From the sequence record OM908436.1: a stretch of DNA of 39,948 nt; one strand, given 5' to 3'. The notes under the pieces were generated by a model. The model made no database searches and was not told the DNA's origin. It saw only the letters and a program-made list of their open reading frames with translations. The stretch comes from Escherichia phage TM1. Made by a program: the position numbers and the translations under genes. This document shows positions 5,008 through 39,948 of this stretch, piece by piece (the stretch's first letter is position 1; each line of letters opens with the position of its first letter).

Positions 5008-5284
5008 GCGTTTTGTTTAGCCTGTTAACCTAAACCGTGAGCTATAGCCCCTCAGTGGGCGACCCGTTGCCTCCTCTAGCTCTCCACCTCAGTGGTAGAC
5101 TTGGCGAGCTGGTCAGGCTCTCGTTAGGTTGTAGGACCTTTCCGACCTGCTGAAGTGGGAGCCTCCAGCGACCCTACTGCTTTCTGTCATCTGCCTGTTG
5201 TTCGTATGACTTATCAGGCTGTCTACTTAACCGGGATGACCCGGCGTCTTCACTATCCGGTGTTTGCCGTGTCGTGTTGACGGA

Positions 5285-8605: not shown

Positions 8606-8667
8606 AGTTGCCCTCCCGGTTTATCAGATTTCACGTAGAGTCGCCTCCACTAGTTAGTGTTAACCAT

Positions 8668-8702
8668 AAAGGCCACTACATATAGTAATGACCTTGAGTC
8701 TA
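8668..8702 (-). promoter_or_regulatory. Conserved RNA hairpin between small terminase and spanin genes (candidate RNase III site, R18.5-like)
   Basis: CATAAAGGCCACT-N10-ATGACCTTGAGTCTA; transcript forms an 11-bp stem with two G-U pairs; two near-identical copies at about 31972 and 38797. Confidence 0.55.
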
Positions 8703-31947: not shown

Positions 31948-31971
31948 GGTTAATCCTCCGTTTAGTCTAAT

Positions 31972-32008
31972 CATAAAGGCCACTCGCTGTGAATGACCTT
32001 GAGTCTAG
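31972..32008 (-). promoter_or_regulatory. Conserved RNA hairpin upstream of the DNA polymerase gene (candidate RNase III site, R4.7-like)
   Basis: CATAAAGGCCACT-N8-ATGACCTTGAGTCTA; compensatory changes relative to the copies at 8668 and 38797 preserve the stem. Confidence 0.55.
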
Positions 32009-37164: not shown

Positions 37165-37187
37165 TGGTCCTACAGTGATAGTTTAGT
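37165..37187 (-). promoter_or_regulatory. Phage-RNAP promoter (phi1.5/1.6-like)
   Basis: ACTAAACTATCACTGTA/GGACCA. Confidence 0.6.
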
Positions 37188-37207: not shown

Positions 37208-37240
37208 GCAAAGAAACCCAGCAGTCCTAAGACCACTGGG
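37208..37240 (-). terminator. Intrinsic-terminator-like hairpin just after the ligase gene (T7 TE-like position)
   Basis: Transcript CCCAGUGGUC-UUAG-GACUGCUGGG followed by UUUCUUU; 10-bp stem with two G-U pairs; T7 has its early terminator after gene 1.3. Confidence 0.5.
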
Positions 37241-37251
37241 TTGACATTTAG

Positions 37252-38310
37252 TTAACTCTTAACGGTTGGATTGTCTTCCGTCCCGCGCCAGCACTTGAAG
37301 CTAGGGTGACGAAGGGAACCATCAGGGAAGCGCTCCATGAATAGGACCTCACACTGCCATCCTTCATAGGCGTGGTTGTCACCGTTTAGCTCCTGAGTCT
37401 TAACAGCTAGTGTAAACTCGTCCTTCTGTTCTTCAGTCAGACCACAGGCGTTAACCACCATGCCATCCTCAAGTAGCACCTCGAAGCCGATGACCTTACC
37501 TTCGTTCGCCTTACCAGGAGTCCCCCACACGAGGCCGCACACGGTCCCGTCGATGGTCTCCTCAGGCTTCATCTTCCACATGCCTGACTTCTTGCCACGC
37601 TTGTACTTACCCAGCGGGTCCTTGACTACCAGACCCTCGTGTCCTTCCAGACGCTTCTGTTCGTACAGGGAGTTGAGCGACTCAAGGTCATAGACCGTGT
37701 GTGACTCAGACAGAACCCAGTCGATTTCAGGGAAGTATTTCTGGAGGAGAGGGACGATAGCTTCGGCCTTCAGGCGTGTGACGCTATGGATAGGACCTTC
37801 GGCTTTCGGGTCATTGATGATGTTAAGGTCCACGATACCATAGACGACTACCTTGATGTTCCGTGTTGCCAGCCAGAATGGGACTTTAGTTCCTCTGCCG
37901 GGATAGCACTCAGCAAAATCCTCGTTGCTTGGCTTCAGCCACTTCGTTCTTATGAGACCTGAAGACGTATTGAAGTCCACTCCTTTTACCATGACCTCAC
38001 CATCAATCATCAGGCCCGTACCTTCGTAGCCAGCCTGTTTAAGGAACCATCGCCAGTCACTAGCCCTTTGCTGATCTTCAACGATGTTGTCGATGTTGGT
38101 CAGGACTGATAGCCACTCAAGTGCTGGAAGAGGTTTAGACTCACGGCTCAACCATTGAGTCTCGCCTGTTGGGAAGACTGGGAGGTTCAACCGGACACCA
38201 TCGTACTTCACTTCAGCTTCCAGCGACCCAGCTGCCTCCAAAGCCTTCTTAACTCCAGACTCAGAGTAGTCTACAGCGCGGTGCGGGTTAGTTTTAATAG
38301 TCGTAGTCAT
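37252..38310 (-). CDS. gp1.3: ATP-dependent DNA ligase (T7 gp1.3-like)
   Basis: 352 aa versus 359 in T7; N-terminal IKTNP and adenylation motif KYDG. Confidence 0.88.
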   Translation of the reverse strand: MTTTIKTNPHRAVDYSESGVKKALEAAGSLEAEVKYDGVRLNLPVFPTGETQWLSRESKPLPALEWLSVLTNIDNIVEDQQRASDWRWFLKQAGYEGTGLMIDGEVMVKGVDFNTSSGLIRTKWLKPSNEDFAECYPGRGTKVPFWLATRNIKVVVYGIVDLNIINDPKAEGPIHSVTRLKAEAIVPLLQKYFPEIDWVLSESHTVYDLESLNSLYEQKRLEGHEGLVVKDPLGKYKRGKKSGMWKMKPEETIDGTVCGLVWGTPGKANEGKVIGFEVLLEDGMVVNACGLTEEQKDEFTLAVKTQELNGDNHAYEGWQCEVLFMERFPDGSLRHPSFKCWRGTEDNPTVKS

Positions 38311-38572
38311 TACATTTTCTCCATGTGTCGAGTTGGTTAGCGAGACCGTTAAGGAAGCCTGTTGCAGTGTTATACAGTACGTCTTCAGAGTAGTGTCCGA
38401 AGGTCTTAAGCGCGAAGATGTTACCCGCTCTGTCCTCGACTTGAAGTCTCATGCACTCCATCCGAAGATGCGCGTCATACCAGTCCTGCTGTATCACGCA
38501 GAAGTCTAACTGATATAGTCTGTTACACGCTGCTTTGAAAGCGTTTAGGTTGCCACTATAAAGTCGGCCCAT
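38294..38572 (-). CDS. gp1.2: T7 gp1.2-like protein (inhibitor of host dGTPase)
   Basis: MGRLYSGNLNAFKAACNRLYQLDFCVIQQDWYDAHLRMECMRLQVEDRAGN is near-identical to T7 gp1.2 MGRLYSGNLAAFKAATNKLFQLDLAVIYDDWYDAYTRKDCIRLRIEDRSGN. Confidence 0.8.
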   Translation of the reverse strand: MGRLYSGNLNAFKAACNRLYQLDFCVIQQDWYDAHLRMECMRLQVEDRAGNIFALKTFGHYSEDVLYNTATGFLNGLANQLDTWRKCNDYDY

Positions 38573-38576
38573 AGCG

Positions 38577-38756
38577 TTATGCTCCTACGAAGTACTTCTC
38601 TTGGTTTACCAGCGAGTCTTTGCCTTCAGCGTTGCGGAAAGCGCCCTTAACACCACCGCCACGCCTAGTCTTGTTCAGCTTGCGACCCTTCGGAATGTAA
38701 CCTTCAGTCTTCTGACGTTCACGGATGCGCTCGAAGTTGATAGTGTTCTGATACAT
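38577..38756 (-). CDS. gp1.1: T7 gp1.1-like small basic protein (59 aa)
   Basis: GYIPKGRKLNKTRRGGG resembles T7 gp1.1 EATKGRKLNKTKRDRSH; hand-translated, below the ORF-track cutoff. Confidence 0.5.
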   Translation of the reverse strand: MYQNTINFERIRERQKTEGYIPKGRKLNKTRRGGGVKGAFRNAEGKDSLVNQEKYFVGA

Positions 38757-38796
38757 GTGGTTAAATCTCCAGTAGTTTACGTTATGTTAGGGTTAA

Positions 38797-38837
38797 TCAT
38801 GAAGGCCACGACTTTTAGTCATGACCTTGAGTCTAAT
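38797..38837 (-). promoter_or_regulatory. Conserved RNA hairpin at +5 to +40 of the phi1.1-like transcript (candidate RNase III site, R1.1-like)
   Basis: CATGAAGGCCACG-N10-ATGACCTTGAGTCTA; 11-bp stem with two G-U pairs on the transcript strand. Confidence 0.55.
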
Positions 38838-38856
38838 CCTATAGTGATAGTTTAGA
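38834..38856 (-). promoter_or_regulatory. Phage-RNAP promoter (phi1.1-like)
   Basis: TCTAAACTATCACTATA/GGATTA; overlaps the stop of the 157-aa ORF. Confidence 0.65.
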
Positions 38857-39325
38857 TGACGATGCGAGGCCTTACCTGCATGACTGCCTGAATCGCTCGC
38901 TCACGTTCTGCCTCCTCGCCGTAGACTTGCATCAGCTCGTAGTCATACTGGATGCGACCGTCGATGTCTCCGAGTCGGTACTCGAAGTCCTTAGAAGACC
39001 CGTCTGTGTGATACTGGTGGATGGTAATCGTCCGGTCGTCACGCTTAGTCACCTCGAAGTAGTGAACCACCTTTCCACACTTTACAAGGCCTATCTTGAA
39101 CTCAGTTGGCTGATACTTACCATCGAACAGTGCCTTGAACTTGATGCCGACCATACGCTTGATGGTTACAGCCGCTGGTGGCGCTAGGCGCTTACGCTCT
39201 GACTGGTTAAGCTTATCTCGAAGTCTTTGGTGCTCCCTGTTTGCCATCTCAAGGTTGGTGTCCTGCTTCTTAACTAACTTTTCCAGTTCTGCGATACGTG
39301 CTTTAAGTTTTGACTTACCGAACAT
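38852..39325 (-). CDS. Hypothetical protein (157 aa) with N-terminal coiled-coil-like region, between RNAP and gp1.1
   Basis: Heptad-like, charged N-terminus KLKARIAELEKLVKKQDTNLEMANREHQRLRDKL; T7 has no gene of this size here. Confidence 0.5.
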   Translation of the reverse strand: MFGKSKLKARIAELEKLVKKQDTNLEMANREHQRLRDKLNQSERKRLAPPAAVTIKRMVGIKFKALFDGKYQPTEFKIGLVKCGKVVHYFEVTKRDDRTITIHQYHTDGSSKDFEYRLGDIDGRIQYDYELMQVYGEEAERERAIQAVMQVRPRIVI

Positions 39326-39403
39326 AGGGTTAACCTCTTCTGCGTTGGACTAAAGTGAATACTGCTAGTGCTCCCAGCCACAAGGCCAGTAACTGTAGGT
39401 GTG

Positions 39404-39619
39404 TCATTTGGTCTGCTCCAGCTTGGACACTACGTCTTTCAGGTATTTCTCGTGGCTGGATTCCACAAGATAGACGAGGGTCTTGAATGGGACGTTAAGC
39501 TGCTTTGACATCTCGGTAGGAATGACCGTGGTCTTCACCAGACCCTTGCCGTTGTGTTCTGTTACGGTCACGATTTGAGTCCCACCCTTTACGCCAGCCT
39601 GCTTGTGTGCAAATTTCAT
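39404..39619 (-). CDS. Hypothetical protein (71 aa) immediately downstream of the RNAP gene
   Basis: ORF starting 13 nt after the RNAP stop; no recognised motif. Confidence 0.45.
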   Translation of the reverse strand: MKFAHKQAGVKGGTQIVTVTEHNGKGLVKTTVIPTEMSKQLNVPFKTLVYLVESSHEKYLKDVVSKLEQTK

Positions 39620-39631
39620 AACTCTCTCCTG

Positions 39632-39948
39632 TTAAGCGAATGCAAAGTCTGAAGACAAGATGTCTTCGATATTCAGTTTACCTTTCTTCGGAAGCTCAGG
39701 CAATTTGTCGCGCTGGCTCTCGTGGAGCTGGTATTCAAACTGCTCGTAGAAGTCAAGCAGCACATCGTTATCGCGGTAGGTCTCTACCATCGTCTCACGG
39801 ACGCCACGGAACAGATACTCAGCGTCAGCCGGGATGGTCCCGAAGCTATCGTGAATCACTGCGAATGACATCACGCCATATTTGCGGTGCGTGTGGACTA
39901 CAGTCTTGCGGAGGTGGCTACCATCTTGTGAGTGGACGAAGTTCGGGC
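39632..39948 (-). CDS. gp1: T7-type RNA polymerase, C-terminal part (stop codon 39632-39634); same gene as 1-2492
   Basis: HDSFGTIPADAEYLFRGVRETMVETY...LHESQRDKLPELPKKGKLNIEDILSSDFAFA matches the T7 RNAP C-terminus HDSFGTIPADAANLFKAVRETMVDTY...LRDILESDFAFA. Confidence 0.92.
   Translation of the reverse strand, partial: PNFVHSQDGSHLRKTVVHTHRKYGVMSFAVIHDSFGTIPADAEYLFRGVRETMVETYRDNDVLLDFYEQFEYQLHESQRDKLPELPKKGKLNIEDILSSDFAFA
39822..39948. repeat. Exact duplicate of window bases 1-127 (assembly overlap)
   Basis: See feature at 1-127. Confidence 0.8.

Follow-up and report, generated by a model that had tools for sequence, protein, structure and literature searches.

The DNA considered here is a stretch of 39,948 nucleotides from Escherichia phage TM1 (sequence record OM908436.1; hereafter the window), and the subject is the interval near its end that separates gene 1, encoding the phage RNA polymerase, from gene 1.1. 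The minus strand carries all genes of this region. Read along that strand, the order is gene 1, a 71-residue open reading frame (ORF-A, 39404-39619), a non-coding spacer of 78 nucleotides delimited by alignment of 12 loci (39326-39403), a 157-residue open reading frame (ORF-B, gene 1.05, 38852-39325), a phage promoter equivalent to phi1.1 (38834-38856), an R1.1-type hairpin (38795-38838), gene 1.1, and gene 1.2. The coordinates that an initial annotation, made from the letters alone, had assigned to the 71- and 157-residue frames between the RNA polymerase gene and gp1.1 are exact. Very probably, the window presents a Kayfunavirus genome in reverse orientation, and the interval is the form that the T3-type gene 1 to gene 1.1 junction takes in this genus. 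The region 38500-39948 matches 224 phage records in a megablast search, nearly all of which belong to Kayfunavirus (K1F/EcoDS1/SH3-like phages of the T7 supergroup), with Citrobacter phage SH3 ranking first (94% identity).

Both open reading frames are genuine protein-coding genes under purifying selection. The ratio of nonsynonymous to synonymous substitution rates (dN/dS, median of pairwise values across 11 Kayfunavirus loci, with a median dS of 0.8-0.9) is 0.13 for ORF-A and 0.24 for ORF-B. As these ratios are accompanied by conservation in hundreds of phage records, the frames are taken to be genes and not products of chance. The opposite explanation, namely that they are chance frames or annotation artefacts within a non-coding promoter or origin region, can draw on the shortness of the 71-residue frame, on several equally long chance frames that occur nearby in other frames, and on the inconsistent length of the ORF-B product across records (70 residues in SH3, two pieces in Peacock). 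It is refuted by the substitution pattern; the maintenance of both frames in hundreds of phage genomes, the Shine-Dalgarno sequences on both genes, the match to a curated Pfam family, and the confident AlphaFold2 models (predicted local distance difference test scores, pLDDT, of 93.9 for ORF-A and 80.4 overall for ORF-B) likewise oppose it and leave it a practically negligible probability. The homology searches and the comparison with related genomes that the initial annotation had proposed return homologs and purifying selection for both frames.

ORF-A encodes a small basic alpha/beta protein (isoelectric point 9.65) whose model comprises a three-stranded sheet, a short helix, and a long helix. 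Its start codon lies 12 nucleotides past the RNA polymerase stop codon, and the intervening spacer (CAGGAGAGAGTT, 39620-39631), which is the same in most relatives, contains the Shine-Dalgarno sequence AGGAG located 7 nucleotides upstream of the ATG. The profile phrog_8082 is matched with an E-value of 6.3e-41, residues 1-66 corresponding to profile positions 1-66 of 66. Synteny of ORF-A directly after gene 1 holds in 12 loci, and tblastn detects the protein in 219 phage records, compared with the 224 that match the region; ORF-A is found in almost every member of the genus. A set of 5.8 billion proteins contains 158 homologs of ORF-A and 248 of ORF-B, and among the matches listed most of those on long contigs, for either protein, lie on contigs of about 39-40 kb. 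The sequence identity of ORF-A orthologs is 90% in K1F, 94% in SH3, and 100% in PH1061.

The orthologs annotated as 'gp1.1' in K1F (CAJ29348), EcoDS1 (ACF15787), and Dev2 are of the same length class (66-71 residues), occupy the same slot directly after gene 1, and show no substantive difference from ORF-A. This database name is positional only, because ORF-A has no Pfam match at E <= 0.1, and so none to the T7 gp1.1 family PF08200, and because PF08200 fits the 59-residue frame at 38577-38756. The latter, the true gp1.1 homolog, carries the name gp1.15 in K1F and Dev2. ORF-A resembles the LptE/RlpB lipoprotein fold in structure only (sequence identity 3-10%): it covers less than half of LptE and lacks a signal peptide or lipobox (MKFAHKQAGVKGG...). 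Membership in the LptE/RlpB family was rejected, as many unrelated alpha/beta sandwiches score nearly equally, which leaves a resemblance of fold only.

Within the T3 gp1.05 family, ORF-B is a long form, built of a coiled-coil helix, a six-stranded beta domain of about 80 residues, and a C-terminal helix. The family profile PF25755 ('Enterobacteria phage T3 gene 1.05 protein', Phage_T3_1_05) is matched with 82.7 bits (cutoff 27, E 1.9e-23), residues 58-129 (38939-39154, minus strand) covering profile positions 2-73 of 73; phrog_8103 is matched over the full length, and a BLASTP comparison with T3 gp1.05 (NP_523302) gives 37% identity over 78 residues (E 1e-11). Homologs are detected by tblastn in 543 phage records, 106 of which cover at least 80% of the length. 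Residues conserved throughout the family are C83-G84-K85, D108, K112, F114, Y116, and G123-R124, and the beta domain displays the motifs G-x-C-G-K, T-D-G..K.F.Y, and D-I-x-G-R-I. Constraint is stronger in this domain (dN/dS 0.155) than in the N-terminal helix (0.35). The coiled-coil-like N-terminus noticed in the initial annotation is borne out by AlphaFold2, which predicts a single helix over residues 2-47 (39185-39322; pLDDT 75-89), and by a heptad register placing L7, I11, L14, V18, L25, A28, L35, and L39 at a/d positions, a pattern matched by 126 of 5000 shuffled sequences.

The naming and delimitation of the gene vary among records: the ortholog is called gp1.05 in the curated EcoDS1 record and gp1.06 in Dev2 and SH4. 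At the locus that the SH3 record lists as a 70-residue gp1.05, tblastn shows an intact 157-residue frame with 95.5% identity; the division into two open reading frames in the Peacock record could be due to a frameshift or a sequencing error. Some records label ORF-B orthologs as 'microtubule-binding protein', which was rejected as a coiled-coil artefact without Pfam support. The two genes were initially described as unknown, and this stands with respect to their function, which is uncharacterised. As sequences they are already known: both have long been listed as hypothetical proteins, ORF-B within PF25755 and under its EcoDS1 name, ORF-A under the name 'gp1.1' in the three phages given above.

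The gp1.05 family is diverse in architecture. A HMMER scan of 1.84 billion representatives yields 163 family clusters at 50% identity, the best 150 of which were sorted with a simple hydrophobicity test. Sixty-four of these 150 consist of the bare domain in the style of T3, 23 carry an N-terminal extension without a hydrophobic segment in the style of ORF-B, and in 51 the domain is preceded by a lysine/arginine-rich coiled coil and, at the N-terminus, a transmembrane-like segment; the sorting motif is missing from the other 12. The anchored architecture points to a domain that lies in the cytoplasm and is tethered to the inner membrane. Such tethering by an N-terminal hydrophobic anchor would apply to about a third of the clusters and not to the TM1 protein, in which the best 19-residue Kyte-Doolittle mean is 0.72 compared with at least 1.6 in the anchored forms.

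It might be proposed on this basis that the family as a whole acts at the inner membrane, in superinfection exclusion or on a membrane host factor, and that the TM1 form reaches its target by oligomerisation. The 51 anchored clusters speak for such a role, as do the location of the gene in the early region and its accessory pattern of presence and absence. The TM1 protein, however, has no hydrophobic segment, the T3-type members are bare domains, and the membrane role is itself predicted; we consider this explanation unlikely.

Concerning the alleles of gene 1.05, the N-terminal helix of ORF-B holds the segment NLEMANREHQRLR of an allele known from Ro103C3lw and Pkp-1, and the beta domain (KIGLVKCGKVVHYFEVTKRDDRT) corresponds to the IMEP24/ST31 type and not to the majority KTGPGxCGKxVxHFT type. 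In this respect gp1.05 is mosaic, which suggests intragenic recombination.

Gene 1.05 is not a constant component of the junction. In K1F, ORF-A and the spacer run directly into the promoter (...GAAGAGGTTAACC|TAAACTATCACTATAGG...), and the gene 1.05 coding sequence is precisely missing; a junction of this type (GGTTAACC|TAAACTATCAC) leaves the gene 1.05 Shine-Dalgarno sequence orphaned. With the K1F junction as a query, 60 records were sampled evenly from 216 matches. The junction is contiguous, i.e., gene 1.05 is absent, in 34 of these 60 Kayfunavirus records (about 57%); a further 15 are matched in two pieces, as expected for records with the gene, and 11 on the promoter side only. PH1061, whose ORF-A is identical to that of TM1, lacks gene 1.05. 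Additional coding capacity is found as well, EcoDS1 encoding a further 76-residue open reading frame between gene 1 and ORF-A (record positions 5033-5263). Because its coding sequence is cleanly missing in K1F and in more than half of the sampled relatives, gene 1.05 is dispensable. The junction after gene 1 is a genuine variable slot, in agreement with the initial description of accessory genes at a hotspot. The hosts named in a few Kayfunavirus-like records are Enterococcus or Staphylococcus (e.g., OR786095.1, 'Staphylococcus phage MBBL139'), probably through mislabelling of the host or through contamination.

The spacer between ORF-A and gene 1.05 keeps a length of 78-79 nucleotides in all 12 loci compared. 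Its mean pairwise identity (0.85) exceeds that of the flanking open reading frames (0.72-0.73) and of their third codon positions (0.56-0.60), and it is kept at 95-100% identity in genomes without gene 1.05. Part of this conservation is the ribosome-binding region of gene 1.05, which includes the ORF-B Shine-Dalgarno sequence GAGG, 9 nucleotides upstream of the ATG. A degenerate phi1.05 promoter was considered for the sequence TATTCACTTTAGTCC, which is promoter-like by eye, and rejected, as no site scores above -11 bits on the promoter matrix described below. A conserved RNA hairpin was likewise rejected: RNAalifold reports a positive covariation term, with only one compensatory pair, and the single-sequence folds are no better than those of shuffled sequences in TM1 and disrupted in ST31.

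The promoter downstream of the spacer and gene 1.05 contains, at 38837-38854 on the minus strand, a perfect consensus copy of TAAACTATCACTATAGGA, with a predicted +1 at 38839. The window holds 11 copies, all on the minus strand, where 0.02 are expected. A position-weight matrix derived from the 11 sites gives at least 31.7 bits at the sites and at most 11.8 elsewhere. ORF-B ends within the promoter, its TAA stop codon occupying 38852-38854, and EcoDS1 annotates a 'phi' promoter at the equivalent place. From the gene 1 stop codon to phi1.1, a scan with the matrix detects no further phage promoter (best score -11 bits), so that the single promoter reported initially is indeed the only one in the interval. 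Neither a sigma-70 promoter nor an intrinsic terminator was found on the coding strand of the interval.

The hairpin that follows has a 12-bp upper stem (-17.8 kcal/mol, z -2.4). It aligns base for base with ACTCAAGGTCA..GTGGCCTTTATGATTGACC of T7 and with a stem-loop that the T3 record labels 'RNase III recognition site R1.1', the sequence common to the TM1, T7, and T3 hairpins being ACTCAAGGTCA...GTGGCCTT(C/T)ATGATT(A/G)ACC. All 15 of its predicted pairs are kept in at least 9 of 10 aligned sequences, two of them with compensatory changes, which agrees with the conserved hairpin noted initially before gp1.1. Because of the alignment with R1.1 of T7 and T3, the promoter and the hairpin are identified as a phi1.1/R1.1 unit with a predicted RNase III site. 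A search of Rfam yields no matching family for the hairpin, only a single chance hit. Hairpins of the type AAGGTCAT...GTGGCCTT occur at 8665-8699, 31969-32004, and 38795-38838, all on the minus strand, and resemble the RNase III sites of T7; the copy at 31969-32004 is the closest to T7 R1.1 (36 nucleotides at 92%).

In T7, the primary replication origin sits in the interval between gene 1 and gene 1.1. TM1 differs from T3 and T7 in the origin module, and the difference does not locate an origin. Unlike in a primary origin of the T3/T7 type, the matrix scan finds no phage promoter immediately after gene 1. Searches of the window with blastn-short reveal no similarity to the T3 origin or to the AT-rich phi1.1B module of T7, the matches being scattered and at most 15 nucleotides long, and within the interval nothing extends past the shared promoter core. 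The sole local candidate is phi1.1 together with the leader (38757-38803, 47 nucleotides, 66% A+T). Elsewhere in the window, 60-nucleotide stretches with 68-73% A+T lie directly downstream of at least five other promoters. Locating an origin by AT-richness or by similarity to the T3 and T7 origins is thus uninformative.

The possibility that gp1.05, ORF-A, or both act as origin factors, the interval representing a rearranged primary origin (the spacer, or phi1.1 with its AT-rich leader), has points on both sides. The T3 primary origin is annotated directly upstream of gene 1.05 and overlaps its start; the spacer is more conserved than the genes flanking it and persists in genomes without gene 1.05; the leader that follows R1.1 is rich in A+T (66%); and the coiled coil of one gp1.05 family member shows a weak match to the initiation-control protein YabA. 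This match is nevertheless below threshold and falls within coiled-coil sequence, the spacer has 50% A+T and neither a phage promoter nor a robust structure, the window is without similarity to the T3 and T7 origin modules, and phi1.1 is not singled out among the promoters followed by AT-rich sequence. Moreover, gene 1.05 cannot be a required origin factor, because it is absent from T7 and from about 57% of the sampled Kayfunavirus records. Taken together, a role of either protein at an origin is very unlikely.

The neighbouring genes anchor the interval. The 3' end of gene 1 (39632-39948, stop codon at 39632-39634, translation ending in ...SDFAFA) can be aligned with the genes annotated as RNA polymerase in SH3, EcoDS1, and others; the gene extends past the end of the window, so its upstream part is outside the sequence. 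On the other side, a variable and moderately AT-rich leader with the Shine-Dalgarno sequence GGAG (38757-38794; mean pairwise identity 0.40 among relatives) precedes gene 1.1. The gp1.1 homolog (PF08200, E 1.1e-9; phrog_4383) has a dN/dS of 0.05. It is followed by a 92-residue homolog of the dGTPase inhibitor gp1.2 (38294-38572; PF10922, E 9.4e-33; phrog_2949), which anchors the gene order. All of these features are on the minus strand.

The time of expression of the two genes can be approached through a related genome. The curated EcoDS1 annotation contains three promoters for the host RNA polymerase at the left end, as well as a phage promoter immediately upstream of gene 1 (2244-2266) and the early terminator TE after gene 1.3. 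To our knowledge, T7 has no phage promoter in that position. A TE homolog (CAACCCAGTGG...CTGCTGGGTTTCTTTG) is located in the TM1 window at about 37209-37243 on the minus strand, after the ligase gene and before the phage promoter at 37168-37185; a simple terminator scan had missed it. From the EcoDS1 annotation and this homolog, it is therefore inferred that ORF-A and ORF-B lie in the early region upstream of TE and would be read together with the RNA polymerase gene during the first minutes after infection, lacking their own phage promoter upstream of phi1.1.

Possibly, though with less than even confidence, both products are early host-directed accessory proteins. ORF-A and gp1.05 might bind host or competitor proteins, with an outcome in host takeover, counter-defence, or exclusion. 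The beta domain of gp1.05 would serve as the binding module and its coiled coil as the oligomeriser, and neither protein would be a component of a replication origin. The early proteins of the T7 group gp0.3, gp0.7, gp1.2, gp2, and gp5.9 provide the analogy for host binding.

Several points weigh against this interpretation. The host-directed role would derive from analogy, from the pattern of presence and absence, and from the early placement, and early-only transcription is itself carried over from a related genome, as the window ends inside gene 1. TM1 gp1.05 lacks the membrane anchor of its relatives and may act differently. A structure search of BFVD returns only uncharacterised viral proteins, PADLOC gives no match at E <= 1 for either protein, profile searches of NCBIfam and of PDB sequences are empty or yield coiled-coil noise, and no functional study of gp1.05 or of K1F gp1.1 was found in a literature search.

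Other sources are similarly silent. Neither protein sequence appears in the supplements of the accessory-gene screen by Silas et al., and structure and fold searches provide no recognisable fold for gp1.05 and no function for either protein. The four PHROGs matched are all annotated as 'unknown function'. Attempts to assign a function by sequence were abandoned, as they led only to families without an assigned function or to coiled-coil noise (FlaC, PUMA_CC, ATRIP, TRAF2, and YabA).

For ORF-A, a different assignment would be that of a small nucleic-acid-binding or RNA-polymerase-associated regulator that is not directed at the host, which we regard as quite improbable. For gp1.05, a more specific form of the host-directed interpretation can be formulated: its beta domain might represent a new fold and an early counter-defence or exclusion effector, deployed in free, coiled-coil-oligomeric, and membrane-tethered formats. 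This form is slightly more doubtful than the general one. Were it true, the presence of the gene in about half of Kayfunavirus and its absence from the others would reflect selection by host defences or competing phages. In a weaker variant, the 78-nucleotide spacer would function as a cis-element of a new kind, namely as an origin or as a regulatory RNA.

Nothing in the interval is surprising enough to change current views, and the finding mostly corrects a T7-centred expectation of the junction between gene 1 and gene 1.1. Both proteins constitute leads for screens of interference between phage and host or between phages: gp1.05 as a widespread, early-region, dispensable, and highly mosaic family, and ORF-A as a confidently folded protein in nearly every member of the genus. 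Work oriented towards therapy makes use of K1F-like phages.

The correspondence with T7 is partial. The T7 record annotates only phi1.1A and phi1.1B between gene 1 and gene 1.1, just as the initial annotation had stated. Promoter phi1.1A is the positional equivalent of the TM1 promoter, and in both phages a promoter and then a hairpin stand upstream of gene 1.1. The promoter core of TM1 is Kayfunavirus-specific (CTATCACTATAGG), unlike that of T7 and T3. Downstream of R1.1, T7 carries another promoter, phi1.1B, and a long AT-rich origin region; TM1 has neither.

The resemblance to T3 is closer. The order in the T3 record is gene 1, phi1.05, primary origin, gene 1.05, phi1.1, R1.1, gene 1.1, and gene 1.2; as in TM1, gene 1.05 occupies the slot, phi1.1 overlies its 3' end, and the R1.1 hairpin comes next. 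The beta domains of the two proteins have the motifs G-x-C-G-K and G-R-I in common. The T3 protein consists of the domain only (90 residues), whereas that of TM1 adds an N-terminal coiled-coil helix of about 50 residues and a C-terminal helix. Where phi1.05 and the annotated primary origin precede gene 1.05 in T3, TM1 has ORF-A and the promoter-less spacer; this replacement of the module composed of phi1.05 and an AT-rich leader is the Kayfunavirus-specific trait. The T3-like Yersinia phage AP5 is arranged as T3, and orthologs of T3 gp1.05 are present in phiYeO3-12 and AP5.

Przondovirus provides a third form. In KpV766 (KP32-like), as in TM1, a gene 1.05 homolog follows gene 1, a promoter lies over its stop codon, and an R1.1-like hairpin comes next. 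Its product (187 residues) shares the domain and the coiled-coil linker; here the coiled coil is long and preceded by an N-terminal transmembrane-like segment (MTYLIVVTILLIIVTAPFISAI), the anchor that the TM1 protein lacks. Gene 1.05 of Przondovirus is preceded by its own promoter and an AT-rich leader, whereas the TM1 gene has neither. As T3 and KpV766 share gene 1.05, phi1.1, and R1.1 in the same layout, the contrast with T7 drawn in the initial annotation is misleading when read as a departure. A gene between gene 1 and gene 1.1 is normal in T3-like phages, in KP32-like phages, and in about half of the K1F-like phages, and T7 is the exception.

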